Positions 25,406 through 45,780 of a DNA stretch of 64,000 bases are shown piece after piece. The translations under genes were made by a program, and so were the position numbers. Within the stretch, counting starts at the first letter, position 1; the number at the start of each line of letters is the position of its first letter. Origin of the DNA: Clostridia bacterium (GTDB lineage: Bacteria > Bacillota > Clostridia > Oscillospirales > CAG-272); the NCBI GenBank assembly GCA_017508605.1, contig JAFVYN010000034.1, positions 47-64,046 on the forward strand. Direction: 5' to 3'. Under the pieces are notes generated by a model. That model was not told the DNA's origin and searched no databases. It saw only the letters and a list, made by a program, of their open reading frames with translations.

Positions 25406-25422
25406 AATAAACCCTCCCTATC

Positions 25423-27426
25423 TTATTTCTCTTGCGAGCTCTTGGGGTCAAGAACGTCGCGAATGGTATCACCGATGATGTTAATGCTGATGGTCGCAAT
25501 GGCAAGGAAGATCGAGGGGAAGAGCCACTGCCACCAGTAGTTCTGGATGACGATCGAGTTGTTGGCGCCGTTGAGCATGTTACCCCAGGTAGGTCTGGGC
25601 TGCTGAACGCCGAAGCCGAGGTAAGACAGCGAGGATTCGGTCAGAAGGCATCCCGCAAAGTCGAGTGCCATCGAAACGAGAATGACCGAAATGATGTTGG
25701 GAAGAATGTGCTTGAAGGCGATCTTCGATTCCTTAACGCCCATGCTCTTGGCGGCGGTAACGAATTCCTTTTCTCTCTCGGCAAGCACCTGACCGCGGAT
25801 CATACGGGCAAGACCCGTCCACGACAGCACACCGAGAATGATCATGATAATGAAGATTCGCATGTTTTCCGAAATATCGTAGTTACGGATGACGTAGGAA
25901 AGCATCATCGCGAAGGGCAGGAAGGGGATCGCCGAGAAGATCTCGGTGATACGCATGAGAAGCATATCCACCCAGCCGCCGAAGTAACCCGAAAGACAGC
26001 CGATGATGATGGCGATGATCGAGGAGACGATGACCGCCACAGCGCCGACCGTCATGGTCATCTTACCGCCGTGGATGATACGCGTCAAAGTATCTCTGCC
26101 GCGGTTATCGGTACCGAAGGGGTAGCCGCGAAGACCGTAACTGTCCTCAAGCTCATAGCCCACACCGTTCTGATAGGAAGCGGGGGAAGACACGCCGGTG
26201 TCGTCATTCTTTTCGGCAAGATATGTCTGATACGAGCCGGCATATACCGCGTCGCACTCGACACCGTTGATCTTGGACTGACCGTAGTCATTGTGACCCC
26301 ATGCGTAAGCCTTGCCGGCATCTGTCAGAGCCACGAAGTGACGGGTACCCGAAACCAGGTTCACGACCTTTTCTCCTGCGGGGATCGTGGGAATTTTATC
26401 CTCATTATAACGGGAAGCCGACTGGACAAGAACTTCGCCGTCAGAAAGAAGGAAGCCGAAGCAGTTGTCGGTTGCCGTGATGTTCACAACCTTCTTGGTT
26501 GCGAGATAGCTTGTGAAATTCGAGACCTTCGTTCCCTTCGAAGAGGAAGCGGAAGCGAAGTTGAAGTAACCGCCCTCGCAGGCGATCGTGCCGTCCTTGA
26601 AGAGAACAACAGCGTAATAGTTCGAGAAGATGACCTCCTGAACGCCGGTGTATTCCTTCTTCAGCGTATCGGCAAGGTTGAGACATGCCGAGCCGTTGCC
26701 CCACATATAGAGCTTGCCGTCGATAACCAGCGCGGTAACCTGAAGACCGCAGGTGAGAGAATCGACCTTCGACACATCGATCGTGCCGTCGATCAGCTCC
26801 TTGGGCATACCGACAAGAGCGGGGTTGGCGGTGTTTTTGTTTTCACCGTACTGCGCAAGCGACTTGTCACCCCAGCCGACGATCTTACCGTCGGTGGTGA
26901 TGGCAATGATATGGTCACGGCCCGCAGCGGCATACGCCACGTTGCCCTCGGTGATCTCAGCGGGGAAATCCGCCATATCGACACCCGTCAGGGCATCCTC
27001 CGTCGCGCCCCATACATAGAGATTGTTATCGTTGGAAACGCCGACTGTGAAGTTTGAAAATCCGTTGATCGAACGAATATTGCCGCGAAGCGCGCGCGGA
27101 ACCGAGCGCATCGACATCACGGGAGCGAGATTCATCTGAAGGGGATCGGTGTAGTTCATATCCATCGGGAAGATAACGGGACCGACGAACACGAAGAGGA
27201 ACATCGCGATCAGAACACAGAGCGCCACGACCGCGATCTTTCTGCGGAAAAATGCCTTAACGGCGAGTTTGGAGGGGCTTTCGAGCTTTTCTACCTCAAA
27301 GATATCCTGATTGGCAAGATCCTTCGAAGCGCCCATGAACATACGGCGCGTCCAGTTCCAGAGAGTCTTACCGACACGAACGAAAACGTTATCGATCTTT
27401 TCATGCTTGTTAGAATTCTGATCCAT
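25423..27426 (-). CDS. ABC transporter permease (OppC-like) with a ~340-aa RCC1-like beta-propeller inserted in the first extracytoplasmic loop
   Basis: TM1 spans aa ~65-87. RCC1-type blades follow (NNLYVWGATEDALTG, GKIVGWGDKSLAQYG, GKLYMWGNGSACLN, GKAYAWGHNDYGQSK). The canonical OppC core then begins at PFGTDNRGRDTLTRIIHG and includes the EAA-loop region (AAKSMGVKESKIAFKHILPN). Confidence 0.8.
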   Translation of the reverse strand: MDQNSNKHEKIDNVFVRVGKTLWNWTRRMFMGASKDLANQDIFEVEKLESPSKLAVKAFFRRKIAVVALCVLIAMFLFVFVGPVIFPMDMNYTDPLQMNLAPVMSMRSVPRALRGNIRSINGFSNFTVGVSNDNNLYVWGATEDALTGVDMADFPAEITEGNVAYAAAGRDHIIAITTDGKIVGWGDKSLAQYGENKNTANPALVGMPKELIDGTIDVSKVDSLTCGLQVTALVIDGKLYMWGNGSACLNLADTLKKEYTGVQEVIFSNYYAVVLFKDGTIACEGGYFNFASASSSKGTKVSNFTSYLATKKVVNITATDNCFGFLLSDGEVLVQSASRYNEDKIPTIPAGEKVVNLVSGTRHFVALTDAGKAYAWGHNDYGQSKINGVECDAVYAGSYQTYLAEKNDDTGVSSPASYQNGVGYELEDSYGLRGYPFGTDNRGRDTLTRIIHGGKMTMTVGAVAVIVSSIIAIIIGCLSGYFGGWVDMLLMRITEIFSAIPFLPFAMMLSYVIRNYDISENMRIFIIMIILGVLSWTGLARMIRGQVLAEREKEFVTAAKSMGVKESKIAFKHILPNIISVILVSMALDFAGCLLTESSLSYLGFGVQQPRPTWGNMLNGANNSIVIQNYWWQWLFPSIFLAIATISINIIGDTIRDVLDPKSSQEK

Positions 27427-27438
27427 ATCGGCACCTCC

Positions 27439-28479
27439 TTACTTATTGACTCTGACGCGGGGATCAACGAAACCGTAAACGATATCAATGATCAGGTTGC
27501 CCGCAAGCGAAATAAAGATATAGAACATCTGCAATGCCAGAACGATCTCGTTGTCATTGTTCTGGAGTGCGTCATAATAGGTCTTACCAATGCCGTTGAG
27601 CGCAAAAATGTTCTCGATCATCAGAGAACCGCTGAAAATACTGAGGAACCAACCGATAACGAGGGTTACGATCGGAATCAGTGCGTTACGCCACGCATGG
27701 CTGTAAATGACGACCTTCTCACGAAGACCCTTGGCGCGCGCGGTACGGATGCAGTCCATCGACAGCGCTTCGATCATCGAGGCACGTACGTAACGGGTCA
27801 TGCCTCCGAGCGAAGTGAAGGTCATAACGATCAAAGGCAGACAGAGATGATACATTTTATCCCAGAACTTCTGCCACGAGGTCCAGCTATCGCTGCCCGC
27901 CGTCGCCATACCGCTGACCGGGAAGAGGTTAAGCACGACCGCGAACAGCCAGATAAAGACGATGGCAATGATGAAGGTCGGCAGGCTGAAGCCTACGATC
28001 GTACCGACCTGAACTGCGGTATCACGCTTACTGCCGCGCTTGACCGCGCAGAAGATACCGAGCGGAATGGTAATACCGAGCGCCAGAATGGTTGCGAAGA
28101 TGTTAAGGAAGATGGTATTCTTCATCGGCTCAACAAGAACCTCGCTGACGGGCTTGTTAAAGAGACGGGACTCACCGAGATTACCCTGAAGAAGGCCGTT
28201 AAAATAGCCCTTCTCCCCTTCCTTGGTGGGGGTATAACGGTAGACACCCAGCCATCTCAGATAGCGCTGGAAGATATTACCGTCGAGACCGTACTGCTTT
28301 TGCCAGAATTCATAGCGTTCGTCATAATTCAGTTCGCCCTTACTGCCCGAAACCTCTGCCTTGGCTTGCTCGGCAGCCTTGTCGACGGGAAGCATGTTGT
28401 AGATCAGATAAATCATCAGAGAGAGCAGCAAAAATACCACAAGGATATAGAAGAGTCTCTTCAGTATATATTTACCCAT
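27439..28479 (-). CDS. ABC transporter permease (OppB-like)
   Basis: The N-terminus MGKYILKRLFYILVVFLLL and the EAA-type loop (DCIRTARAKGLREKVVIYSHAWRNALIP) are typical of the binding-protein-dependent permease family. Confidence 0.9.
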   Translation of the reverse strand: MGKYILKRLFYILVVFLLLSLMIYLIYNMLPVDKAAEQAKAEVSGSKGELNYDERYEFWQKQYGLDGNIFQRYLRWLGVYRYTPTKEGEKGYFNGLLQGNLGESRLFNKPVSEVLVEPMKNTIFLNIFATILALGITIPLGIFCAVKRGSKRDTAVQVGTIVGFSLPTFIIAIVFIWLFAVVLNLFPVSGMATAGSDSWTSWQKFWDKMYHLCLPLIVMTFTSLGGMTRYVRASMIEALSMDCIRTARAKGLREKVVIYSHAWRNALIPIVTLVIGWFLSIFSGSLMIENIFALNGIGKTYYDALQNNDNEIVLALQMFYIFISLAGNLIIDIVYGFVDPRVRVNK

Positions 28480-28610
28480 AAAAAATCCTCCTTATTGGAC
28501 TTGTGAGGTTTTTGTGTCTGTGTCTTGTGAAAAAATAAGCAGATACTGCCGCAGATAGCACACTATCTGCTGGTTTTTTCACAAACACAAAATGGGGGAT
28601 AAAGTAGACA

Positions 28611-28645
28611 TAGGTAGGGACGGCAAATTGCCGGCCCTACCCACG
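28611..28645 (-). other. Intercistronic hairpin downstream of the binding-protein gene (possible attenuator/stabiliser)
   Basis: GTAGGGACGGCAA/TTGCCGGCCCTAC stem with one mismatch and no convincing U-tract. A second inverted repeat lies at ~28527-28583. Confidence 0.35.
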
Positions 28646-28695
28646 TCGTCGTTTATGTGAAAATTACAGTCATTCCGCCTTACGGCAGGAGTGAA

Positions 28696-30885
28696 TTAGT
28701 TGTAGTTTTCCCAGAAGTCAGCTTCATCAGCGATGAATGCCATCTGATACTGATCGTACATATCGGGATTGATGGTCCAGTTGAACGAATAGTCATAGAT
28801 AGCGCTGGTGAAACCGGTAGCAAAGTTAACTGCATTGAGCTTGGGAGTGCCGTCGTAGCCGTACTGCTCGTAACGGTAAAGTTCGCCGTAGAGACCGCCG
28901 TTGAAGTCGCATTCGGTGTAGGTGATGTACATGCCGATAGCGGTGGTTGCATTGGGGTTGGTCTGCCATGCGGTAACGAGCTGGTCAGTTACGTCGTTGG
29001 GCTGAGTGCCGTACCAGTTAATAGCGAGAGGCATGTAGTAGCTGCCATCGATCTTAACGGTCTTGTACTTGCTGTCGATAGACTTGAAATTGAGGTTGTC
29101 GGCGCTGAGTTCATAGCCGGAAAGCTTCTTGTAGCGGACTGCATCGGTTTCGGGGTTGAATTCTTCACCCTTTTCGTTGTAGATCCAGCCTGCATCGGTC
29201 AGAACCTTAATAGCGTTGTCAGAGGAGTAGGTGTACTGGTTGAGCTTGATCTCATCCTTAACTGCCTTGTAAGCAGCCGAACCAGTGTAGTAAGGACCGT
29301 GAACAACGGCACCGTAACCGCCGGTGAAGGTAGCTGCGAATTCAGGACGGTTGATGGTGTACATAATAGCCTGACGTACTTCAACCATCGAGGTAGGACC
29401 GTAGTCGGAACGGAAGCCGAGCTTACCGTAACCTGCGCGGTCATAGTGAGTTTCCTTGAACTTGCCGTTGGACTCTTCAACGATCTTAAGAGCGTTCTTG
29501 GTGTCGGTACCACCGGTAATGCCGGCAACGACGTCAAGCTCACCCTTGGTGAACATATCCATCTGAGTTTCGGAAACCTGCTTGATATAAATGATCTTGT
29601 CGATCGAAGCCTTGCCGCGAACGTCCTTGGTGTAGTTGGGGTTCAGGGTAAGGGTAGCGGTAAGGGTGGACTCATCGTAGTTGGAAACTACGTAGGGACC
29701 GGACCAGGGAAGGTTCGAGTTCCACTTGAGGTTATCAAGAATCTGAGCTGCAGTCTTGTAGGAGGTCTTGCCGTCCTTTTCTTCGGTAGCGTAGAAAGCT
29801 GCGTTGAGACCGCAAGCCTTGGTGGTCTCGTTAACAACGATGTCGCCTTCGCCGAGGTAGAGAGCAAGGGGCGTGGGGCTGAAGCTTGCATAGCTCATGG
29901 TGTAGTAGTAACCTGCGTAGTCGGCGGTGAAGGTTACGGAGAAGGTGTAATCGTCGATCAGCTTAACGCCGTCAAAGTAAACGGTTTCGCCTTCGCCGGT
30001 GTAAGCGTTGAATGCTTTAAAGCCAACGAGCTGGAGACCGCTGGTGCCGGAAGCGCCTGCTTCAACAACAACGGGAGTGGAGTTTGCAAGAAGAGAAGCG
30101 ATGTAGTTCTTAGCGTTGATAGCGGAGCCATCGGAGAACTTGAGATCGCTCTTTACCTTGATGGTGTAGGTGAGGGTGCCGTCTTCGTTGGTGGTAGCAA
30201 CAGGAACAGCTTCAAGAGCGTCCATGTTCCAAACGAGAGCGCCGTCCATGTTGGTCTGTACGGTTGCATAACCGCTGGTGAGGTTTTCGATGTCGAGGTC
30301 GGACGAGCCGGGCGACGACTTACCGAAGGAAGAGCTTCTGAAAGCACCGGAAAGGTCGGTCGAAGAACCGAGAATTACCTGGGTGTTTTCGCCTTCGATG
30401 GTAGCTGCGATGACAGCATCAGCAGGAGACCAATAGGGGGTGGTGATGAAGTTTGCGATCTTACCGTTGTAAAGATCGAAATACTGGTTGGAATACAGCG
30501 GGATCTCAGGGCAGAGATAGTTCCATCTCTGGATGTAAAGCTTCCACCACTCGTTGTAAACGTCCTCGCTGGACTGGTAAGCGGAGTTGCCTTCGGGAAC
30601 CTGGGTGTTGTAAACCATTGCCATGGAGAGGAAGTCCATACCGAGTGTATAGGTCTTGCCTTCTACTTCAACGGTAGCGATGCCGTTAGCATCTTCCTTA
30701 ACCATGTCGATCGTTACCTTACTGCCGATCTTATCATAAACGGAAGTAAAGTCAGAATGTGCGACGGCGTCAGCAGGATCGATTTCCTGGTATTCTACTT
30801 CTTTGCTGCAGCTTGCGAGAAGAGCAACAGAGCCAAGAACGAGAACGATAGCCATCACAAGGGAAAGAATTCTGGTCTTTCTCAT
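28696..30885 (-). CDS. ABC transporter substrate-binding lipoprotein (family 5, peptide/nickel type), unusually long at 729 aa
   Basis: Lipobox VALLASC. It is the first gene of the operon, and its size and composition fit an extended SBP_bac_5 family member. Confidence 0.85.
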   Translation of the reverse strand: MRKTRILSLVMAIVLVLGSVALLASCSKEVEYQEIDPADAVAHSDFTSVYDKIGSKVTIDMVKEDANGIATVEVEGKTYTLGMDFLSMAMVYNTQVPEGNSAYQSSEDVYNEWWKLYIQRWNYLCPEIPLYSNQYFDLYNGKIANFITTPYWSPADAVIAATIEGENTQVILGSSTDLSGAFRSSSFGKSSPGSSDLDIENLTSGYATVQTNMDGALVWNMDALEAVPVATTNEDGTLTYTIKVKSDLKFSDGSAINAKNYIASLLANSTPVVVEAGASGTSGLQLVGFKAFNAYTGEGETVYFDGVKLIDDYTFSVTFTADYAGYYYTMSYASFSPTPLALYLGEGDIVVNETTKACGLNAAFYATEEKDGKTSYKTAAQILDNLKWNSNLPWSGPYVVSNYDESTLTATLTLNPNYTKDVRGKASIDKIIYIKQVSETQMDMFTKGELDVVAGITGGTDTKNALKIVEESNGKFKETHYDRAGYGKLGFRSDYGPTSMVEVRQAIMYTINRPEFAATFTGGYGAVVHGPYYTGSAAYKAVKDEIKLNQYTYSSDNAIKVLTDAGWIYNEKGEEFNPETDAVRYKKLSGYELSADNLNFKSIDSKYKTVKIDGSYYMPLAINWYGTQPNDVTDQLVTAWQTNPNATTAIGMYITYTECDFNGGLYGELYRYEQYGYDGTPKLNAVNFATGFTSAIYDYSFNWTINPDMYDQYQMAFIADEADFWENYN

Positions 30886-34653: not shown

Positions 34654-35604
34654 TTAGCCGAATACCGCCACGGGACGGTCGGGTCTTTTGGTATATACGA
34701 TCTTGGCATCCTTTAAAACGGGACCCTTGCCCTGATACAAAGGACTTGCCTCGATCACGACCTTGGCGGTGATCTTGACCCACATGCCGGTCTTCAGATC
34801 CTTTGCCATCGGGGTCTTGACCGCGAAGCCGCGGTAGGAGATATCATCGGCGCAGCAGATCATCATCTGTCTGCCGATAGCAACGGTATCCTTCGGGAAA
34901 TTGTCATCCTTTACGCAAATACCGGTAAAGGAGACCGTCTTTCCCTGATATTTCAGAAGCTCTTCCGACATATCACGGTAGAAATACGCAAAATCGTCAT
35001 CGCCGACCGTGACAACGGGCGCGTTGATATCAAAGGGCAAGGGATCCTCGATCTCATCGGGCTCGATCGTGCCGTCGGTATATTCATACACGATACGCGC
35101 CGAACGAGAGACGCCGCGTACCGCCTTGTGATAGGTCATAACGTCGGCATCGGGTGACACACGGTTGAAGATCACGGGATCCGCACTCTGCAATTTGTCA
35201 ACCACAAGTTGCCTCATATTGGCATTATATTCCGTGAAGGTCGAGCCGTCAACGAACATGACCTCCTGATAGACCAGCCAGTGCTTGGGCATTACACGGT
35301 AGAGATTGTCAAGAAGCCACATACCGTTATACTCCAGCATCACACGGTCTGCGCCATGCTTTTTCTCAAGCGCCTCAAGATACTCCGCCGTCAGAAGCTC
35401 AGGAGAATCAACCGTCTCAAGAAAGACCTTGTCCGAGGGGTAGACCGAGGGATCAAGCTCCTCTTCCCCCTCCTCGCAGAGAATGACAAGCGTGGTTTCG
35501 CCCTGATAAAAGCCTTCATCCGAAAGCGTTTCCTGTAAAAAGGTGGTTTTACCCGATTCCAGAAAACCGGTGATCAGATATACGGGAATTTCTTTTTTTG
35601 CCAT
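34654..35604 (-). CDS. CobW/G3E-family P-loop GTPase-like protein with a C-terminal Cys-motif domain (..MMICCADD..)
   Basis: P-loop GFLESGKTT. The N-domain resembles CobW. The C-terminal ~110 aa (VSFTGICVKDD..AIGRQMMICCADDISYRGFAVK..WVKITAKV) resembles, from memory, the C-terminal domain of DUF1980/TIGR03943 proteins (low certainty). Confidence 0.65.
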   Translation of the reverse strand: MAKKEIPVYLITGFLESGKTTFLQETLSDEGFYQGETTLVILCEEGEEELDPSVYPSDKVFLETVDSPELLTAEYLEALEKKHGADRVMLEYNGMWLLDNLYRVMPKHWLVYQEVMFVDGSTFTEYNANMRQLVVDKLQSADPVIFNRVSPDADVMTYHKAVRGVSRSARIVYEYTDGTIEPDEIEDPLPFDINAPVVTVGDDDFAYFYRDMSEELLKYQGKTVSFTGICVKDDNFPKDTVAIGRQMMICCADDISYRGFAVKTPMAKDLKTGMWVKITAKVVIEASPLYQGKGPVLKDAKIVYTKRPDRPVAVFG

Positions 35605-35620: not shown

Positions 35621-36787
35621 TCAGATGCCGAAGAGCGTCTTCAGCTTGGTTTCATCGATCTTCGAGCCGATCACACAAAGTCTGCCGATGATACCCGCCT
35701 TGCCGCGGCGGATGTCAGGCTCGCCGGGAACGTAGTCGAAATGGATCCACTCGCCACCGTCAGCCGAAGCCACGATACCCTTGGCGCGAAGCACCATGCC
35801 GTATGCATGTTCGTCCTCAAGCGCCTCTAAGATCTCGCGAAGGCCGTCCTCGGTAAAGGGATGCGCGGTCTCAAAACCGCAGCTTGTAAAGACCTCGTCC
35901 GCGTGATGATGGTGGTGGTGATGTCCGCAGCCGCACTCCTCTCCATCCTCATGATGGTGATGATGTCCGTAGCCGCACTCCTCGCCATCCTCATGATGGT
36001 GGTGATGGCCGCAACCGCATTCCTCTCCATCCTCATGGTGGTGTTGATGTCCGCAACCGCACTCCTCGCCGTCCTCATGGTGGTGATGGTGTCCGCAACC
36101 GCATTCTTCGCCATCCTCATGATGGTGGTGATGTCCGTGATGGCGGTGATGCTCTTCCAGTGCCGCAAGCTCCTCGGTAAGAGTTGAGCGCTTTTCCATC
36201 GCGGCAAGAATATCCTCGCCCGAAAGCAGGTCCCAATCGGTCGAAACCAGTACGGCATCAGGATTATGCTCACGCACAAGCGCAATCGAAACCGCAAGCT
36301 TGGCTTCCGAAAGACCGTTCACGTGGCTGAAAATGATCGCGCCTGCCGACTCGATCTGATCGTTAAAGAACTCACCGAAATTCTTCATATACATCTTGCA
36401 CTTCTTGGCATCCACAACCGCGACCGTGCCGTTCAGAAGAAGACGCTCATCGTGAAGACCTTCCACCGCGCGGATGATATCGGAAAGCTTGCCGACACCG
36501 GACGGCTCAATGATAATGCGGTCAGGGGTATAGGTCTCGATGACCTCGGAAAGCGCTTTGCCGAAATCACCGACAAGAGAGCAACAGATACAGCCCGAGT
36601 TCATCTCGTTGACCGTAATACCCGCATCGGCAAGAAAACCGCCGTCAATACCGATCTCGCCGAATTCATTCTCAATGAGAACGACCTTTTCGCCCGCGTA
36701 GATCTCCTTAATGAGCTTCTTGATCAGCGTGGTCTTACCCGCGCCCAAAAAACCGGAAAAAATGTCAACCTTGATCTGTTTTGTCAT
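35621..36787 (-). CDS. CobW-family metallochaperone GTPase with an internal His/Cys/Glu-rich repeat array
   Basis: P-loop GFLGAGKTT, the CxCC motif (SGCICCS) and the CobW C-domain are present. Residues 213-295 read HHRHHG(HHHHHEDGEECGCG)x5 HHHHHHH. Confidence 0.88.
   Translation of the reverse strand: MTKQIKVDIFSGFLGAGKTTLIKKLIKEIYAGEKVVLIENEFGEIGIDGGFLADAGITVNEMNSGCICCSLVGDFGKALSEVIETYTPDRIIIEPSGVGKLSDIIRAVEGLHDERLLLNGTVAVVDAKKCKMYMKNFGEFFNDQIESAGAIIFSHVNGLSEAKLAVSIALVREHNPDAVLVSTDWDLLSGEDILAAMEKRSTLTEELAALEEHHRHHGHHHHHEDGEECGCGHHHHHEDGEECGCGHQHHHEDGEECGCGHHHHHEDGEECGYGHHHHHEDGEECGCGHHHHHHHADEVFTSCGFETAHPFTEDGLREILEALEDEHAYGMVLRAKGIVASADGGEWIHFDYVPGEPDIRRGKAGIIGRLCVIGSKIDETKLKTLFGI
35903..36151 (-). 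repeat. Five tandem 42-bp in-frame repeats encoding HHHHHEDGEECG(C/Y)G
   Basis: The near-identical unit ...GTGATGTCCGCARCCGCAYTCCTCKCCRTCCTCATGRTGGTG... is read directly in the sequence. Confidence 0.9.
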
Positions 36788-37064: not shown

Positions 37065-39254
37065 ATGTCATCTTTTTCCTATAAGACCCGCGGCAATTCC
37101 TCGCCCCAGGGCAAATCAAAGGTCTATTTCGCTTGCCATCCCGAGGATCTCCACCTTTTCGAAGCCATTTCCGACGATATCCTACGCGAGGTCAACTGCG
37201 CCGTGTTTTATCACAACTCCCCCATCGAAAACGAGAAAGAGCATCTCCGCGACCTTTCAGAGATGAACGTAATCGTCATCCCCATCACCACGAAATTTCT
37301 CACCACCCCCTCTGCCGCGCGCGATATTGAAATTCCCTTCTCCCAACAAAAGCATATCCCCGTTCTTCCCTTGATGCAGGAGCCGGGGCTTGTTGACGTT
37401 TTCAACAAGGTCTTGGGTGACATCCAGTTTCTCGATAAGAGTGCCCGCGACGATACCGCCATCTCCTACGAGGAAAAATTCAAGAACTTCCTCACCTCGA
37501 TTCTCGTCGGGGACGAGCTTGCCGAAGAGATCCGCAATGCTTTTGACGCCTACATCTTCCTCTCTTACCGCAAGAAAGACCGCGCCTACGCCCAGGAGCT
37601 GATGCGCCTCATCCACGAAAACGATTTCTGCCGTGATGTCGCGATCTGGTACGATGAATTCCTCATCCCCGGCGAAAACTTCAATAATACCATCGCCGAC
37701 GCCCTTCAAAAAAGCAAGCTCTTCGCCCTTGCCGTCACACCAAACCTTCTGGAAGACCCCAACTACGTCATGACCACCGAATACCCGATGGCAAAGAACG
37801 CGGGCAAGGAGATCCTTGCCGCCGAGCTTGTTCCGACCGACAAGGAGGCGCTCGCAAACGCCTATCCCGATCTTCCGCGCACCGTCAATACCGCCGATCC
37901 CGAAAGCCTTTGCGACGGTCTTCGCGATGCTTTTCAGTGGGTCATGCTGCGTGATCACGATGATGACCCCAAACACAACTACTTCATCGGTCTTGCATAC
38001 CTCTCGGGTATCGACGTTGAAAAGAACCCCGAGCGCGCCCTCTCCATGCTCACCTTCGCCGCCGCATCGGGGCTTCCCGAAGCCTGTGAAAAGCTCGTTT
38101 CGATGTATAAAACCGGAGAAGGCGTCAAGCGAGACTACGAAACGGCGATCCGTTGGCAAGAAAAACTCGTCGGGATCCGTGAAGACCTCTTTCAGAAGAA
38201 CAAAAACGAGGACACCGCAGGAGACTGTCTCAGCGCAAGATCCAATCTCGCCGATTGCTATGAGGCGGTTTCGGATTATACCAAAGCCAAAGCCTCCGTT
38301 CTTGAGCTTCTGGTATGGATCGACACCATAGAGGACACCGTCAGCGACACCTTCCTCGACCGTAACCGCGCTTCTCTTTACGGAAAACTCGGATATTACA
38401 GTCAACATACGGGCGATATCGAAGGAGCAAACCGCTATTATGATGCCATGAAGCATCACAGCGAGCGTCTTCAGAAAAGCAGCGAGATGGAATCCGAGAG
38501 GATCCGTGACTTTTCACTTGCGTGGCTTGAAGAGGCGCGAAACGGGGAGGAATTTTCTCTGCCCGACGAGATCTGGAACGATCTTGCGGCACTCTTTCTC
38601 TCGTCCGCCGACGATTACCGCATCTACGCACGCCGCGAGCTGGCACAGTGCTATACCGCCCTCGGACTCACCGCGCTGGAAGAAAGCGACACCGAAACCG
38701 CCGCGCATTACTTTACGGAGGCACTCTTAATCACCGAAGAGATCGCCGACCGCTTCACCGATGCGCATTCCCAAAAAGCCGATCTTATCCGTGAGATCGC
38801 CATTCTTCACTGCTATCTCGGTGATATCGACAAGCTCAAAGCACGCTATGACGAAGCCTACGGGCGTTTTGAGAAAGCGAACGCGCTCTTTCTGACACTC
38901 GCCTCGGGGCAGGAGCTTCCTTACGATATCGCGACGGTATGGCACCGTATGGCGGGTATTCACGAAAAAAAAGGAGAGTACGATGCGGCGCTTGACTTAA
39001 AGCTTCGCTCTCTTTCCTTAGCACAGGACTGCGCCGAGAAGACCGGTACGGTACAGGCATACGAAACCCTTGCGGCATCACACGGAACACTTGCTTTTCT
39101 CTGTCGGGATCTCGGCAAGACCGAACAGGCGCGCTTTCACGCAATGGCTTCTCAGGAGATCATCGAAACCTGTCTGTCAAACCGACATGAGCTGCCGCCC
39201 GCTGTCAAAAGCTTTTACGATGCCATCCGCCGACTGGTCGATTCCCTGACGTAA
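37065..39254 (+). CDS. Tandem TIR-like domain protein with Sel1 and TPR repeats (729 aa, cytoplasmic)
   Basis: Domain 1 (aa ~18-105) reads KVYFACHPEDL...VIVIPITTKFLTTPSAARDIEIPF. Domain 2 (aa ~161-255) reads AYIFLSYRKKDRAYAQELMRLI..VAIWYDEFLIPGENF..SKLFALAVTPNLLEDPNYVMTTEYPMA. Sel1-type units read YFIGLAYLSGIDVEKNPERALSMLTFAAASGLPEACEKLVSMYKTGEGVKRDYETAIRWQEKL. About 350 aa of TPR-like helices follow. Confidence 0.8.
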   Translation: MSSFSYKTRGNSSPQGKSKVYFACHPEDLHLFEAISDDILREVNCAVFYHNSPIENEKEHLRDLSEMNVIVIPITTKFLTTPSAARDIEIPFSQQKHIPVLPLMQEPGLVDVFNKVLGDIQFLDKSARDDTAISYEEKFKNFLTSILVGDELAEEIRNAFDAYIFLSYRKKDRAYAQELMRLIHENDFCRDVAIWYDEFLIPGENFNNTIADALQKSKLFALAVTPNLLEDPNYVMTTEYPMAKNAGKEILAAELVPTDKEALANAYPDLPRTVNTADPESLCDGLRDAFQWVMLRDHDDDPKHNYFIGLAYLSGIDVEKNPERALSMLTFAAASGLPEACEKLVSMYKTGEGVKRDYETAIRWQEKLVGIREDLFQKNKNEDTAGDCLSARSNLADCYEAVSDYTKAKASVLELLVWIDTIEDTVSDTFLDRNRASLYGKLGYYSQHTGDIEGANRYYDAMKHHSERLQKSSEMESERIRDFSLAWLEEARNGEEFSLPDEIWNDLAALFLSSADDYRIYARRELAQCYTALGLTALEESDTETAAHYFTEALLITEEIADRFTDAHSQKADLIREIAILHCYLGDIDKLKARYDEAYGRFEKANALFLTLASGQELPYDIATVWHRMAGIHEKKGEYDAALDLKLRSLSLAQDCAEKTGTVQAYETLAASHGTLAFLCRDLGKTEQARFHAMASQEIIETCLSNRHELPPAVKSFYDAIRRLVDSLT

Positions 39255-39821: not shown

Positions 39822-40427
39822 TCAGCAGCAACGGATCAGATCGCCGCCCATACATTCACAGCAGCAGTCGGCACAGATCAGCCCCGAGCAGATATCACAA
39901 TCCGAGCATCCGCCCGAACGGTGACGGGAATAGCTGTCACTGCGCATATTGGCAGTCGCCATGCGCATGCTTTCGAGCGCCTCACGGTATTCGCGGTTGT
40001 TCGGGTCTTCACGGCAAGCCGATTCCAGCATCCGCATGGCATCGAGATACCGTCCCATGCGCATAAAGAGGACGCCCTTCAAAAAGAGCCATTCGGCGCC
40101 CCTCTCGTTGTAGGGAATGCCCTCAAGCAGACGGTCTGCCTCGGAAATGCGGTTCTGATTCAGCATCACGCGGACCGTGGCGTAAATACTGTCCCCATTG
40201 TCATCGCGCGTTTCGGATGCTCCCTGATAGCCCTCTTCCCGCCACCGCTTCACGGTCTCATACGCCTGGTTGATCTCTTTCATCTTTTCGGCATAGGCAT
40301 CGCGCATTGTCTCATCCTGACAGTTGTCGGGATGATAGCGCCTTGCGAGATCGTGGTATGCCTTCCTGATCTCGGCATCGGTCGCATTCGGCGATACGCC
40401 AAGAATGTCATAAGGCTGATAGGTCAT
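39822..40427 (-). CDS. J-domain protein with a TPR-like middle and a C-terminal cysteine string
   Basis: J-domain YDILGVSPNATDAEIRKAYHDLARRYHPD (HPD present). The last 28 aa, GGCSDCDICSGLICADCCCECMGGDLIRCC, contain 10 Cys. Confidence 0.85.
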   Translation of the reverse strand: MTYQPYDILGVSPNATDAEIRKAYHDLARRYHPDNCQDETMRDAYAEKMKEINQAYETVKRWREEGYQGASETRDDNGDSIYATVRVMLNQNRISEADRLLEGIPYNERGAEWLFLKGVLFMRMGRYLDAMRMLESACREDPNNREYREALESMRMATANMRSDSYSRHRSGGCSDCDICSGLICADCCCECMGGDLIRCC

Positions 40428-41317
40428 AAGTCCTCCTTCCGGTTTTCCCGTAACAGTTCGACACGTTTTTTCTGATAAATGATCTCCCGCGATACGTCGG
40501 GAAGACCCAGCCGCAGAAGATTGTCAAGGATCTCATAGATCCCCCGATCCTTCACCGAAAGTCCGTCAAGCGTCCGTGACGCCTCGACCATTTCAAGATC
40601 AAGCGCCGTCACGAGCCGATGGCAGAACGCTTCGTCCTCAAGATCCTCGCCGCTTAAAACAAGGGGATTGTAGCGCCCCTTCTTTCGATCCTCCACACGG
40701 TCGGCGTAGGCATCGAGAATATAAATAAAGCGTCCCACACGGTAGCCGATCTCATACAAGGCAGCCTTCACTTCATCGGACAGGATATGTCCCCCGTCAT
40801 AGCAAAAGACCTCGCCGAGAAGCGCGCCGAAGCATGCCGCCCCTTCATACACGTCCTGAGAGCCGTTTGCCTCGCAGGTCGAGAGCTGCGAAAGCTTTTC
40901 ACTCACCGTTTTCGCAAGCGCGGGAATGGGCGCGTGCTTCATCGCCTTATCAGCACCCCTTGCCATCAGCCTTGCGCAAAGCCGACGGATTCCCCGCTCA
41001 TCCGATATGTCATCGCGCAGCTTTTCATATAAAAGGATCGCCGAAACGCTTGCGGTATAGCGAAGGCTTTCGGAGGCGTCGACCGTCAGACAACCCTTCA
41101 GGGGGTGAATGGGACAGCGTTTTTTCTGAAAGCACGCCCTCTCGCCCGTTACTCCCAGTCGGATCAGGGCAAGAAGCACCATGTCATAGCTGAGCGAATA
41201 GCGAAGCCGACGGGAGAGCTTTTTCTGATGGTGACACAGCCCACAGTAGACCGCGCGGTAAAACTCGTATTCCTTTACACGCAGATCGCCCCTTCGCACC
41301 TTCACGTAGCCGAACAC
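40424..41317 (-). CDS. DUF5685-like protein (recognised from memory of the FGYV...YCGLC N-terminus)
   Basis: Probable GTG start at 41317 (..GGGGTGAAGATT GTG TTC GGC TAC GTG..), giving VFGYVKVRRGDLRVKEYEFYRAVYCGLCHHQKKLS. It overlaps the J-protein start by 4 nt (ATGA). The track start at 41398 adds 27 aa. Confidence 0.55.
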   Translation of the reverse strand: MFGYVKVRRGDLRVKEYEFYRAVYCGLCHHQKKLSRRLRYSLSYDMVLLALIRLGVTGERACFQKKRCPIHPLKGCLTVDASESLRYTASVSAILLYEKLRDDISDERGIRRLCARLMARGADKAMKHAPIPALAKTVSEKLSQLSTCEANGSQDVYEGAACFGALLGEVFCYDGGHILSDEVKAALYEIGYRVGRFIYILDAYADRVEDRKKGRYNPLVLSGEDLEDEAFCHRLVTALDLEMVEASRTLDGLSVKDRGIYEILDNLLRLGLPDVSREIIYQKKRVELLRENRKEDL

Positions 41318-41489
41318 AATCTTCACCCCATTTTCGCCCGAATTCTTGACAAGACATAAAAAATTTGTTATACTGAATGTAGTATGCGGTACTGTCACCG
41401 TATACCGAATTTTCTATAGTGTAACATAAAGTTGTGTCCAAGTTTTGTCCGTATCGTGAACAAAACGTGAACACGAAAAAGGAGTACCC

Positions 41490-42197
41490 ATGCCCAAGCT
41501 CTATATGGCGGGTCTTGTCATGGACGTTTGTCACGACAACCCGATCCTGAATCGGCAGATCGCCGATTATCTCACCGACAAGGACCCCGATTTCACCGTC
41601 GACCTTGATCGCTCCTATATCGAAAAAGAGATCGAGGAGGAGGTCAGAAACGATCTCGCCTTCCCACCGTCCTACAGTGAATATCTCGCCATTTACCGCT
41701 TTATTGCCACGAAGATCCTCGATTATGACGGCTTTCTGATGCACGGCTCCGCGATCGCGAAGGACGGCAGGGCTTACCTCTTCTGCGCGCCGAGCGGCAC
41801 GGGAAAAAGCACGCATACCCGTCTTTGGCGTGAGGTCTTTCCCGATACGATCATGATCAACGATGACAAGCCCATCATCCGAAAGCTTGCGGGGGAATAT
41901 CTCGCCTGCGGTACACCCTGGAGCGGCAAGCATGACCTCGACACCAATGTCTCGCTCCCCCTCAGGGGCATCGTCATCCTCGCAAGAGGAGAGAGCAACT
42001 ATATCGAGCGCGTGCGTCCCGAAACGGTGCTGGGGCTTTTGTTCAATCAGATCTTCCGCCCCTCACAGGATGAGGCGTATCTTAAGACCATCGACCTTGT
42101 CAGCGACATGCTCACAAGCGTTCCCGTATATAAGCTCTACTGCAATATGGACAAAGAGGCGGCACTCGTCGCCGAGAAGACCCTGTCAAACAACTGA
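41490..42197 (+). CDS. HPr-kinase-like (HprK-related) P-loop protein
   Basis: RBS AAAGGAG. FLMHGSAIAKDGRAYLFCAPSGTGKSTHTRLW resembles the HprK C-terminal kinase core and its Walker-A-like loop. Confidence 0.55.
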   Translation: MPKLYMAGLVMDVCHDNPILNRQIADYLTDKDPDFTVDLDRSYIEKEIEEEVRNDLAFPPSYSEYLAIYRFIATKILDYDGFLMHGSAIAKDGRAYLFCAPSGTGKSTHTRLWREVFPDTIMINDDKPIIRKLAGEYLACGTPWSGKHDLDTNVSLPLRGIVILARGESNYIERVRPETVLGLLFNQIFRPSQDEAYLKTIDLVSDMLTSVPVYKLYCNMDKEAALVAEKTLSNN

Positions 42198-42211
42198 AAG
42201 GAGATCTCAGT

Positions 42212-42484
42212 ATGAAGATCAAGCAAGGATTCATCTTAAGAAAATGCGGCGAGGCGGACATTGTTGTGCCGATCGGCGCCAACGTCGAAAAATACAAGAA
42301 TATCATGATCACCCTCTCGGGTACCTCCCGTATGCTCTGGGAGCAGCTCGTCAAGGGCTGTGACGAGGAAGCCCTCGTTACCCTGCTCCTCACCACCTTT
42401 GAGGATGCGCCCGAGGACGTTGTCAGAGCCGACGTCTCGAGATTTCTGAAAACACTTGCCAAGGCAGGACTTCTCGATGAGTGA
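42212..42484 (+). CDS. PqqD-family protein (RiPP recognition element-like)
   Basis: 90 aa. The pattern GFILRKCGEADIVVPIG...ITLSGTSRMLWEQLVKGCDEEALVTLLLTTFEDAPEDVVRADVSRFLKTLAKAGLL is typical of PqqD/RRE proteins. Confidence 0.65.
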   Translation: MKIKQGFILRKCGEADIVVPIGANVEKYKNIMITLSGTSRMLWEQLVKGCDEEALVTLLLTTFEDAPEDVVRADVSRFLKTLAKAGLLDE

Positions 42485-42917
42485 AGCTTATGAGGACGTG
42501 CTGAAGCGAAACGGCACGCTGGTCTTCACCCCGGGCGGCACCTCCATGCAGCCCCTGCTTCGCCATCATGAAAACCCCGTGGTGCTACTTCCCGTCGAGG
42601 GCAGGCTGAAACGGGGGGACGTTCCCTTTTACAAGCGCGCCAACGGTCAGTACGTGCTGCACCGTATCATCCGTGTACATAAGGATGGCTACGATTGCTG
42701 TGGCGATAACCAGACGGCGCTCGAAAAGGGCGTCACCGATGACATGATCTTTGCCAGAATGGTTGGCTTTTATCAGGGAGAGCGCTATATTTCCTGCGAC
42801 GATCCCGCCATCGTCCGTTACAGCCGCCGCCGTATGGCATCAAGACCGATGCGCCACATCATCGCAAGAACCCGCTATCTCTTCGGGCGTGTTTTCAAGC
42901 CAAAACACCGCGATTAA
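42477..42917 (+). CDS. S24/S26-type serine peptidase-like protein
   Basis: The nucleophile motif GGTSMQP(L) is present and the size fits (~146 aa). The ATG at 42477 overlaps the PqqD stop, indicating translational coupling. Confidence 0.6.
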   Translation: MSEAYEDVLKRNGTLVFTPGGTSMQPLLRHHENPVVLLPVEGRLKRGDVPFYKRANGQYVLHRIIRVHKDGYDCCGDNQTALEKGVTDDMIFARMVGFYQGERYISCDDPAIVRYSRRRMASRPMRHIIARTRYLFGRVFKPKHRD

Positions 42918-42956
42918 CAAAACCAATCACCGTTATCAAAGAAAGAAGGAAAGTAT

Positions 42957-44408
42957 ATGGATCGCGACACAAGACGTGTCAAGGAAAACTACACCATGCT
43001 CTGCGACTTTTACGAGCTTACCATGGGTCAGGGCTATTTCAACTGCGGAAAGCGTGATACGATCACCTATTTCGATGTCTTTTTTCGCGATATTCCCGAC
43101 GGCGGAGGCTATGCCGTCTGCGCGGGACTCGATCAGCTGATTGACTACATCGAGGATCTCGCCTTCACCGAGGAGGACATCGAGTGCCTGAGAAGAAAGC
43201 GTCTCTTTTCCGAGGATTTTCTCAGCTATCTCAAGACCTTCCGCTTCACGGGTGATATCTGGGCGGTTCCCGAAGGCACACCCATCTTCCCCGGCGAACC
43301 CATCATGACCGTCCGCGCCCCCGCCATCGAGGCGCAGTTCATCGAGACCTTCGTCCTGCTTTCGCTGAACCATCAGTCGCTGATCGCCACCAAGACCTCA
43401 CGCATCGTGGGGGCAGCTGAGGGAAGACCCGTTTCGGAATTCGGCTCCCGACGTGCCCAGGGTACGGCAGGCGCGATCCTCGGTGCGCGCGCCGCGTATA
43501 TTGCGGGCTGCTCTTCCTCGGCATGTACCATTGCGGAGGAGCGATACGGCGTTCCCACGGGCGGTACGATGGCTCACTCCTGGGTGCAGATGTTCGATAC
43601 CGAATTTGAAGCCTTCGATACCTACTGCTCGATCTATCCCGACAGTGCGACCCTTCTGATCGACACCTATAACGTTCTCAAGAGCGGTGTGCCCAATGCC
43701 ATCAAGGCATTCAAGAAGCACAATATCAGACGGGGCGGTGTCAGAATCGACTCGGGTGACGTGGCGTATCTCTCGCGCCGTGTCAGAAGCATGCTTGACG
43801 AGGCGGGACTTTACGATATCAAGATCATCGTCTCGAACTCTCTTGACGAACATATCATCCGCGACCTCATTCAGCAGGGCGCCAAGATCGACGCCTTCGG
43901 TGTCGGCGAACGCCTTATCACCTCCCGTTCCTCCCCCGTCTTCGGCGGCGTGTATAAACTCGTTGCCGTGGAAAAGGAAGACGGCACGATCCTTCCGAAG
44001 ATCAAGATCTCCGAGAATATCGAAAAGATCACCAATCCCCACTATAAAAAGCTTTACCGTCTGTATGACAGAACCACGGGCAAGGCAATTGCCGACCAGA
44101 TCACCCTCTACAGCGAAACGATCGACGATACGAAGTCTCTTGAGATCTTCGACCCCCATTTCACCTGGAAAAAGAAGACCGTCGAGAACTTTATCGCAAG
44201 AGAGCTGCTCGTTCCCGTGTTTAAAAACGGTGTCTGCGTCTATCCCCGCTATTCGGTCGAGGAGATCCGTAGCTACTGCAAGAAGGAAATGGATACCCTC
44301 TGGGAGGAAGTCAAGCGTCTTGACAATCCTCACCGCTACTACGTTGACCTTTCGCATGAGCTTTGGGAGCTGAAGCACCGTCTGCTCAATGAAAATTCGC
44401 AGAGCTGA
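42957..44408 (+). CDS. pncB: Nicotinate phosphoribosyltransferase
   Basis: N-terminus NYTMLCDFYELTMGQGYF, then ..EFGSRRAQG.. and ..GTMAHSWVQ.. are typical of NAPRTase. Confidence 0.9.
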   Translation: MDRDTRRVKENYTMLCDFYELTMGQGYFNCGKRDTITYFDVFFRDIPDGGGYAVCAGLDQLIDYIEDLAFTEEDIECLRRKRLFSEDFLSYLKTFRFTGDIWAVPEGTPIFPGEPIMTVRAPAIEAQFIETFVLLSLNHQSLIATKTSRIVGAAEGRPVSEFGSRRAQGTAGAILGARAAYIAGCSSSACTIAEERYGVPTGGTMAHSWVQMFDTEFEAFDTYCSIYPDSATLLIDTYNVLKSGVPNAIKAFKKHNIRRGGVRIDSGDVAYLSRRVRSMLDEAGLYDIKIIVSNSLDEHIIRDLIQQGAKIDAFGVGERLITSRSSPVFGGVYKLVAVEKEDGTILPKIKISENIEKITNPHYKKLYRLYDRTTGKAIADQITLYSETIDDTKSLEIFDPHFTWKKKTVENFIARELLVPVFKNGVCVYPRYSVEEIRSYCKKEMDTLWEEVKRLDNPHRYYVDLSHELWELKHRLLNENSQS

Positions 44409-45217
44409 TGATACCTCCCTTCTCAAGCCCCTTTTTCCGCTGTCCGATCTGCCGCGAGCTTTTGAGGCGGCAGGAAAACAGCCTCGTCTGTCCGCACCGC
44501 CATACCTTTGATATCTCGTCTGGCGGCTCGGTCAATCTCTCGGGCGCGTTCGGTAAAAAGCACGGTGACAACGCCGATATGGTCAAAGCCAGACGGCAGT
44601 TTCTCATAAGCGGCGCCTATGCGCCCATGCGGGCTGCCGTAAAGGATCTGCTCGATCGCTATGTCAAAGAAGGCGTCCTTCTCGATTCGGGATGCGGCGA
44701 GGGGTATTATTCCGAAGCCTTTGTCAGCGAAAAAAGACAGGTGTACGGCATCGACATTTCCCCGAAAGCCGCCATGATGTGTGCCAAGCGCCGTGTCCTT
44801 TCGGGCGTGGCGGTAGCATCCTGCTATAATCTGCCCGTTCCCGACGGCATATGCGATGCCGTCACCAATATCTTCTCCCCCTTCTGCCGTGAGGAATTTT
44901 TGCGCGTTCTGAAGACGGGAGGCTACGTGATCGACGTCATCCCCGCCGAAAAACATCTGTGGGAGCTGAAAAGCGCCATTTACGATACGCCTTATGAAAA
45001 TACAATAAGACCGATCGGGATCGAGGGCTTTCGCCACGTCACGACCGAAAAGGTCGAAACTCGCTTCACCCTGCATACCCATGACGAGATCCGCGATCTT
45101 GTCCTGATGACACCCTATTTCTACCGCACGGGCAAGACGGGTCACGAACGCCTGTCAGCCCTTACTGAGCTTTCCGTCAGCGCCGAATTTTATCTTCTTG
45201 TTTATCAAAAGCTCTGA
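44408..45217 (+). CDS. rlmA: 23S rRNA (guanine-N1)-methyltransferase RlmA-like
   Basis: The N-terminal Zn ribbon is FRCPICRELLRRQENSLVCPHRHTFD. The SAM motif is LDSGCGEGYY. Confidence 0.75.
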   Translation: MIPPFSSPFFRCPICRELLRRQENSLVCPHRHTFDISSGGSVNLSGAFGKKHGDNADMVKARRQFLISGAYAPMRAAVKDLLDRYVKEGVLLDSGCGEGYYSEAFVSEKRQVYGIDISPKAAMMCAKRRVLSGVAVASCYNLPVPDGICDAVTNIFSPFCREEFLRVLKTGGYVIDVIPAEKHLWELKSAIYDTPYENTIRPIGIEGFRHVTTEKVETRFTLHTHDEIRDLVLMTPYFYRTGKTGHERLSALTELSVSAEFYLLVYQKL

Positions 45218-45237
45218 TTTTCAAGAAAGGAGCCGAT

Positions 45238-45780
45238 ATGAGCCTCTTTTTCGAACACTGTAAACAAAGCCGCGGCGATACCAAGAGCGTTCTCGCAAGG
45301 CTTCTTGATCCCATGCTCCTCACCGAGGTTGCCGAAGCGATCGCCTCGCATTTTCTGAAAAGCGGGGTCACGCGCGTGCTGACCTCCTCGCCCGCGGGGA
45401 TCGCCCTGGCTTACAAGACCGCCGAGCTGCTTTCGGCAAAGGCGGTATTTGCCAAGCCCTGCACCGAAGAGGAAAGCTACTCTGCCGTCGCCAACGCCAG
45501 AACGAACACCGTTTTGTCTCTGCCCAAGCGCTATCTCACCGCCGCCGATACCGTTCTGATCGTCGACGATACTCTTGCCACAGGAAGGATCGCCTCCGCA
45601 CTTCTCGAGATCACGCGTCAGTCGGGCGCCGCGCTTTGCGGCATCGGAGTCGCGCTTGAGAAGAAAAGCCACGGCGCTTCCGATAAGCTCCGCGCGCGGG
45701 GGATCGAGATCTTCTCTGCCGTCACCGAAACCGAGGGTGCGGGAGGAATTCCCGTCTTTGAGAAAAACGAAGCCACCTGA
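45238..45780 (+). CDS. Phosphoribosyltransferase-family protein (Xpt/PurR-C-like)
   Basis: The PRPP-binding loop reads VLIVDDTLATGRIASALLEI. Confidence 0.65.
   Translation: MSLFFEHCKQSRGDTKSVLARLLDPMLLTEVAEAIASHFLKSGVTRVLTSSPAGIALAYKTAELLSAKAVFAKPCTEEESYSAVANARTNTVLSLPKRYLTAADTVLIVDDTLATGRIASALLEITRQSGAALCGIGVALEKKSHGASDKLRARGIEIFSAVTETEGAGGIPVFEKNEAT

Follow-up and report, generated by a model that had tools for sequence, protein, structure and literature searches.

The stretch of DNA analysed here, 64,000 nucleotides from a genome assembly of the Clostridia (CAG-272; GCA_017508605.1, contig JAFVYN010000034.1, positions 47 to 64,046) and referred to below as the window, carries three adjacent genes at 41490-42917 on the forward strand, which we call A, B and C. 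They encode a P-loop kinase of the HprK/PEPCK fold, a discrete PqqD-type RRE (recognition element for RiPPs, peptides that are made on the ribosome and modified after translation) and a soluble leader peptidase resembling signal peptidase I. With moderate confidence, we assign this trio to a pathway like that of the linear polyphosphorylated peptides (LPPs), as a minimal module of the lppK-lppB-lppS type that belongs to a branch of gut and rumen Clostridia and whose precursor peptide is encoded elsewhere.

LPP clusters (lppA-K-B-S-D-N) were described from Paenibacillus alginolyticus DSM5050 and other Bacilli (Popov et al., Nat Commun 2026;17:6633, May 2026, PMC13381572), in a study that started from a SipW-like peptidase in lasso-rich Bacilli loci. 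The precursor LppA carries the motif YxxPxVLxHQxIxFETxxS followed by variable C-termini, and LPP precursors of up to 200 aa have been reported. The kinase LppK is HprK-like, the RRE LppB is discrete, and the peptidase LppS resembles signal peptidase I (SpI); LppD, an exporter of the MsbA kind, and the NTP transferase LppN complete the set. Ser3 of the core, next to the leader, receives as many as four phosphates from LppK. LppS cuts after T-1, solely with LppB present, and its residues S29, H68 and D93 are required (PMC13381572). The first-pass annotation of the window had proposed a module of kinase, leader-binding RRE and leader peptidase with its substrate encoded elsewhere, and had suggested that this module may be undescribed. 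The domain calls and the module stand, but the publication of lppK, lppB and lppS, together with lppA, lppD and lppN, means that such a trio is no longer undescribed.

All three open reading frames (ORFs) called in the first pass are present. Gene A (41490-42197, forward strand) encodes 235 aa and was proposed there to be HprK-like. Consistent with this, the AlphaFold model of the protein (pLDDT 91.4) gave HprK/P and PEP carboxykinase (PEPCK) as its best Foldseek matches (probability 1.00, E = 2e-5), the top structures being HprK/P (1kkl, 3tqf) and PEPCK. A profile search of PDB sequences placed PEPCK first as well, as a weak match (E = 0.09). The Walker A motif, A100-P-S-G-T-G-K-S-T108 (APSGTGKST), is invariant among the homologues, and the invariant residues further include H85, S102-G-T-G-K106, T108-H109, W113, D126-K127-P128 and G141-T-P-W144. 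Homologues of gene A number 5214 in a protein collection clustered at 90% identity; this count, like that of 1544 for the precursors below, is one of clusters. Precomputed Pfam assignments for gene A and its homologues name the newer family PF27840 'ScmC'. The local copy of Pfam gave no match to gene A, and NCBIfam gave weak, sub-threshold matches to ScmC and HprK_rel_A. In its HprK/P-PEPCK fold, its invariant Walker A motif and its position directly 5′ of B, gene A has the kinase feature of LPP clusters, and we regard it as LppK-like.

Gene B (42212-42484, forward strand), the probable counterpart of LppB, encodes 90 aa. The earlier view that this protein is PqqD-like was borne out by a match to Pfam PqqD (PF05402), which scored 49.9 bits where 23.4 are needed. 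When the B family was aligned with the LppB family (HHalign, 98.9%, E = 1e-17), D74 came to lie opposite LppB D70 and S36 opposite LppB N33. Both positions serve leader binding in LppB: D70 hydrogen-bonds the leader Tyr, and N33 holds the kink at the Pro of the leader in place, the N33A mutation having nearly abolished leader binding (PMC13381572). The Tyr-binding Asp is retained in gene B as D74. Gene B is also 34% identical to a Desulfosporosinus RRE of cluster 4 in the sequence similarity network (SSN) of Popov et al. (Supplementary Data 1).

Gene C (42477-42917, forward strand), the LppS counterpart, encodes 146 aa. Its AlphaFold model (pLDDT 92.6) matches the signal peptidase I SpsB and LexA/UmuD, and weak matches were also found to Ni-SOD maturation protease and to signal peptidase I of the archaeal and SipW types. 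Over 20 homologues, which NCBI names 'S24/S26 family peptidase', the residues G21, S23, M24, P26, D48, L61-H62-R63-I64, G76-D77 and E83 are invariant. The predicted catalytic triad is S23/H62/E83, with the motif GGTSMQP at the Ser. A Ser-Lys dyad of the LexA/UmuD (S24) type was rejected, as the general-base position is taken by an invariant His (VLH62RI), as in SipW, Sec11 and archaeal S26 enzymes. Of the earlier description as an S24/S26-like serine peptidase, the S26, signal-peptidase-I-like half was thus upheld and the LexA-type half was not. Alignment of the C family with the LppS family (HHalign, 99.4%, E = 9e-22, 122 columns) placed S23/H62/E83 opposite S29/H68/D93; the acid of the triad is Glu in gene C and Asp in LppS. 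The catalytic core fold is common to gene C and the SipW, Sec11 and archaeal type I signal peptidases (MEROPS S26B), which likewise use Ser, His and an acid instead of the bacterial Ser-Lys. In contrast to these enzymes, gene C has extra N- and C-terminal helices, its sequence has no apparent transmembrane segment that could serve as an anchor, and it is genetically tied to an RRE, outside the Sec pathway.

By analogy with the characterised LPP enzymes, we infer a route of three steps. The RRE B would capture the N-terminal leader of the precursor through a motif of the Y-x-x-P-x-hydrophobic type, extending its own beta-sheet. The kinase A would then transfer phosphate from ATP, perhaps repeatedly, to the invariant Ser behind the leader motif. 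Finally, the peptidase C would dock on the RRE-leader complex via its N-terminal helix and cut the leader away, which would leave a linear, phosphorylated product without it. What the data themselves show is homology, linkage of the genes, retention of catalytic residues and purifying selection; the order of the steps, the phosphorylation of Ser, the RRE-dependent cleavage and the action of the trio in trans are all modelled in this way on the Bacilli system.

The linkage of the three genes was assessed in other genomes, a check that the first-pass annotation had named. A scan of GTDB species representatives with gene A gave 80 loci, nearly all from gut or rumen Clostridia and including Ruminococcus flavefaciens Y1 and Ruminococcaceae FB2012; the full locus set comprises 84. 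With iterated hidden Markov models (HMMs), all three families were found in 54 of the 84 loci, A and B in 10, A and C in 7 and A alone in 13, and some of the incomplete loci sit on truncated contigs. Single-sequence BLASTP under-detected the short RRE, which it found at 39 loci compared with 65 for the iterated HMMs. The gene orders A-B-C, B-C-A and B-A-C were all seen. In a metagenome-assembled genome (MAG) labelled Synergistaceae, A and B are fused in a single ORF (locus L059, 1935-2906), which provides independent support that kinase and RRE work together. That 54 of 84 loci combine A, B and C, with the gene order permuted and one A-B fusion, argues that the grouping is not due to chance. 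Cassettes also occur in further MAGs with labels outside the Clostridia: besides L059, L022 is labelled Synergistaceae, L028 and L057 Bacteroidales, L042 Atopobiaceae and L072 actinobacterium. These reflect either horizontal transfer or binning errors.

Most relatives carry a fuller cassette than the window. Clustering of neighbouring ORFs recovered an ABC exporter with fused transmembrane and nucleotide-binding domains (PF00664 + PF00005) at 38 loci, a nucleotidyltransferase of PF14907 ('NTP_transf_5') at 29 and a radical S-adenosylmethionine (radical-SAM) protein at 8-9. The commonest layout is A, B, C, ABC exporter and PF14907 transferase, sometimes with the radical-SAM enzyme in addition. 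It had been noted earlier that the locus lacks a lasso cyclase, a radical-SAM enzyme, a YcaO protein and an ABC exporter. This holds: none of the four, with exporters taken as those of the cassette type, was found in the locus or in the remaining 64-kb window, in which profiles of the exporter, the PF14907 transferase and the radical-SAM protein gave no match. As a general trait of the family, however, the absence of an exporter does not hold.

Many of these relatives also carry the presumed substrate. Small-ORF clustering followed by an iterated profile yielded 42 candidates for precursor genes, spread over 29 loci. They are 30-55 aa long, usually lie directly 5′ of A and are often found in tandem, with six in L008 and five in L022. 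The consensus, M-x-K-Y-E-x-P-E-M-E-V-I-x-F-E-x-E-D-V-I-T-T-S, is followed by a tail whose length and composition are hypervariable. Invariance is complete only for a single Ser and nearly so for F, D and I. No family of Pfam or NCBIfam was matched by the precursors, and comparison with the Bacilli precursors by HHalign was weak (E = 3e-3, probability 9.7%). The weak F-E-T homology suggests that the Clostridial precursor would be cut after F-E-[TAS], leaving a conserved EDVITTS start of the core; the -3/-1 small-residue rule equally fits a predicted cut after V-I-[TA]. Two ORFs that carry the leader motif (L007, 3499-3993, 136 aa; L053, 1631-1993, 114 aa) contain long domains rich in Asn, Gly, Trp and Tyr, which indicates that substrates of the system are not always short peptides.

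Precursors of the same family also stand alone. Queried with the precursor alignment, the clustered protein collection returned 1544 unnamed relatives, and among the 120 matches listed no IKC63 locus tag, that of the source MAG of the window, was found. Orphan precursors lie at 7001-7114 in L088/L089 and at 7001-7156 and 1459-1614 in L090/L091, for example MDMKERYETPEMEIVEFETEDVITTSGGGIDTPFEPV; in L088-L091 no kinase, RRE or peptidase was found within 7 kb of them. One orphan precursor follows the gene of a 1337-aa protein, and the other is found next to genes for an acyltransferase, an ABC transporter and a two-component system.

The window belongs to a lineage that has retained the trio only. 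In a neighbour-joining tree of A, it groups with L005, L006, L087, L001, L003 and L085; this group is monophyletic, and all seven members are trio-only. Two genomic contexts occur within it. In the window, L001, L005, L006 and L087, the trio sits between the DUF5685/DnaJ genes and NAPRTase, whereas in L003 and L085 it lies between an ABC-2 operon and SpoU/SecA. A, B and C are all that the loci of this lineage, and the trio-only loci in general, have in common. Small-ORF clustering over the trio-only loci recovered the RRE itself and no conserved small ORF, and a relaxed precursor search (E ≤ 50) of the closest loci returned noise alone. Pfam scans of approximately 47 window ORFs identified housekeeping and accessory genes only. 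The lineage would have lost the genes for the precursor, the ABC exporter and the nucleotidyltransferase, or would never have gained them. Since its cluster holds no precursor of its own, the substrate of the trio would have to be encoded elsewhere in the genome; with no precursor nearby and with orphan precursors of the same family in other genomes, this is the natural reading.

Several observations weigh against an LPP-like module with a distant precursor. As the first-pass annotation had stated for the flanking gaps, no precursor is present nearby: the profile of 42 precursor sequences found none when run over the 64-kb window translated in all six frames, and relaxing the threshold to E ≤ 50 returned only noise. 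A precursor lies within 8 kb in 0 of 15 trio-only loci, compared with 25 of 47 loci equipped with a gene for an exporter, a transferase or a radical-SAM protein (Fisher p = 1.4e-4). Profile and Pfam scans of the 64-kb window also found no dedicated exporter. In this genome the search for a precursor covered the 64-kb window, so that action in trans is presumed. At the level of single sequences, the similarity to the Bacilli proteins is limited; the pairwise BLASTP similarity of B and LppB is not significant, and C and LppS share merely 24% identity (BLASTP E = 2e-9). The window RRE carries Ser at the position of LppB N33 (S36, 42317-42319), where 62 of 68 family members have Asn. Finally, the dN/dS values of approximately 0.09-0.25 obtained for each of A, B and C are approximate, as dS is saturated in several pairs.

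Part of this evidence could also be explained if the trio had been retargeted, that is, if it phosphorylated and clipped something other than a classical small precursor, be it a longer protein (cellular or secreted) or a peptide whose leader has changed. The absence of a precursor from all 15 trio-only loci would fit this, as would the lack of a linked exporter if the target were intracellular. The leader-bearing ORFs of 114 aa (L053) and 136 aa (L007), together with the reported lengths of LPP precursors, show that long substrates are conceivable. The Ser at the N33 position, which is critical in LppB, is confined to the sub-clade of the window (L001, L002, L005, L006 and L087); as it replaces Asn, the leader specificity of the window RRE may differ. 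On the other hand, the RREs of L003 and L085 keep the Asn although these loci are trio-only, and a Ser would still be able to hydrogen-bond. No candidate substrate is conserved beside the trio, where only A, B and C are common to the loci. Moreover, ordinary precursors occur as orphans elsewhere, so that a simple separation of genes would suffice without a new class of substrate. We therefore consider retargeting unlikely, though it is the alternative to which we give most weight. A stronger form of it, a free-standing protein phosphorylation-and-clipping system derived from a RiPP pathway, in which the altered RRE pocket would read leader-like N-termini of ordinary cellular or secreted proteins, appears quite improbable to us. 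The lineage-specific substitution in the RRE also lends itself as a natural experiment on how leaders are told apart, the central question of the 2026 LPP paper.

It is also conceivable that the trio is an evolutionary remnant of a decayed full cassette with no current function, as the precursor, exporter and nucleotidyltransferase of most relatives were not found. Yet at least 7 species-level genomes carry all three ORFs intact, as do dozens of variants from metagenomes with identities as low as 47%, and the catalytic and Walker motifs are invariant. For every gene dN is far below dS, which indicates that all three genes are under purifying selection. The operon has remained compact, with ribosome-binding sites (RBSs) and a promoter-like site, and the trio has moved as a unit between the two genomic contexts. 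Decay is thus a very unlikely explanation.

An LPP-like module acting on a precursor encoded elsewhere has precedents for the separation of its genes, both in the orphan precursors of L088-L091 and in some Bacilli genomes in which the RRE and the precursor are encoded elsewhere in the genome (PMC13381572, Supplementary Data 1). A stable lineage that includes the window keeps only kinase, RRE and peptidase, while precursor genes stand alone in other genomes. If orphan trios indeed act in trans on orphan precursors, mining rules that require an adjacent precursor miss both halves of the pathway.

The arrangement of the locus is that of a small operon. Gene A is preceded by an AAGGAG ribosome-binding site, and the gap of 14 nt between A and B holds an RBS of B's own. 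The start codon of C (ATG, 42477) overlaps the stop of B by 8 nt (ATGAGTGA). An alternative TTG start of C at 42456 was rejected, being out of keeping with the N-termini of the homologues. Of the three genes, which the first-pass annotation had described as translationally coupled, only B and C overlap; A and B are set apart by the RBS-bearing spacer. A candidate sigma-70-like promoter lies on the forward strand at 41346..41374 (TTGACA-17 nt-TATACT, with an extended TG); it has 11 of 12 hexamer matches and is the top site within 41200-45400, as judged by the consensus match alone. It is located approximately 115 nt 5′ of gene A, within the 5′ end of the divergent DUF5685 gene. No terminator-like hairpin was found between gene C and the downstream NAPRTase gene, and an Rfam scan of the window at gathering thresholds gave no match.

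On the other side of the trio, two genes are transcribed divergently from the reverse strand: that of a DnaJ-TPR protein whose C-terminal tail is rich in Cys (39822-40427), and the DUF5685 gene (40424-41398), which overlaps the start of the former by 4 nt. The pair is conserved in L001, L005 and L087. The first-pass annotation had raised the speculative option that the trio processes the Cys-rich tail of this J-protein. Indeed, J-protein and DUF5685 genes adjoin the trio in the window, L001, L005 and L087, and L006 has the DUF5685 gene on a sequence too short to reach the J-protein gene. However, only the closest relatives have these genes next to the trio; L003 and L085, where unrelated genes are found, do not, nor do any other trio-only loci. 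RREs of the B type bind N-terminal leaders, and the precursor profile had no match in the J-protein. This proposal was not sustained, and we consider such a role extremely unlikely.

Other genes of the window are of interest in their own right. A CobW/G3E-family GTPase (PF02492 + CobW_C; 35621-36787, reverse strand) contains an insert of approximately six tandem copies of HHHHHEDGEECGCG; the repeat is very rich in His and Cys and resembles metal-binding sequences. A second CobW-like gene (34654-35604) adjoins it, and the pair is also present in L087. Two proteins with TIR domains are encoded on the forward strand at 14803-15921 and 37065-39254 and may be related to defence. One combines TIR with BspA-type leucine-rich repeats, with a match to ThsB-like TIR, and the other (729 aa) combines TIR_2 with Sel1/TPR repeats. 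An OppC-type permease (25423-27426, reverse strand), encoded within an Opp-like operon for a peptide ABC importer (22774-30885), has RCC1/WD40-like repeats between its N-terminal transmembrane domain and BPD_transp_1, which is an unusual fusion.

Three groups of known systems may be compared with the trio. The pairing of an HprK-like P-loop protein with a PqqD-family chaperone is also known from ScmC (TIGR04249, PF27840) and the HPr-rel-A kinases (TIGR04352/TIGR04353). However, gene A scores far below the cut-offs of these equivalogs (28.2 vs 125 bits and 17 vs 200 bits), and the window holds neither the ScmE/ScmF radical-SAM/SPASM proteins of SynChlorMet nor the partners of HPr-rel-A. Literature under 'ScmC' or 'SynChlorMet' concerned unrelated acronyms only. 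The combination of HprK, S24 peptidase and RRE is not mentioned in the RRE-Finder paper, the 2025 RRE-definition paper or the radical-SAM compendium.

The second system comprises the lasso peptide clusters of the paeninodin/pseudomycoidin type (PadeK/ThcoK, B1, PsmN). Here, too, the target of an HprK-family kinase is a Ser in a precursor with a leader and a discrete PqqD-type RRE reads a [Y/W]xxP leader, and the relatives of the trio share the PF14907 transferase and the ABC exporter. Lasso clusters of Firmicutes typically contain HprK-like kinases, B1 proteins of the PqqD type and PF14907 transferases, and the leader motif is lasso-like, so that A and B might serve as kinase and B1 protein for a lasso cluster elsewhere in the genome. 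In contrast to those clusters, the trio is accompanied by no macrolactam synthetase and no B2 cysteine peptidase: Pfam scans of the window ORFs found no Asn-synthetase-like cyclase and no transglutaminase-like B2, and neither is among the conserved neighbours of the 84 loci. Leader removal would fall to an SpI-like serine enzyme, of the type by which LPP-like clusters are defined, and the phospho-Ser would lie near the leader junction and not at the C-terminus. In addition, core tails of 8-10 residues are too short for a lasso. An accessory role in lasso biosynthesis thus has very little probability.

The closest system is that of the LPPs of Bacilli. Kinase, discrete RRE and SipW-type SpI peptidase follow each other there in the same order as in the window, and the fuller Clostridial cassette, A-B-C-exporter-PF14907, has the content and order of lppK-B-S-D-N. 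Like LppA, the Clostridial precursors combine an N-terminus of the Y-x-x-P...F-E-T...S type with variable C-termini. They differ from LppA in a leader that is three residues shorter between P and F, in an extra conserved EDVITTS block and in the position of the invariant Ser, seven residues after F-E-[TAS] instead of three. The copy in the window differs further in that it has no lppA, lppD or lppN. The window proteins are nearer to the Clostridial entries of SSN clusters 4 and 9 (32-34% identity) than to LppB and LppS. These Clostridial RREs were filed as 'RRE others' with LPP features not determined, and the main text of Popov et al. concentrates on SSN cluster 1 (PMC13381572). Judging by these alignments and gene orders, the Clostridial cassette is a sister branch of the LPP system that was left unanalysed in the 2026 paper. 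LPP clusters were first described in 2026, essentially from Bacilli, and a far larger sister branch exists in gut and rumen Clostridia, with its own variant of the leader and with optional radical-SAM partners.

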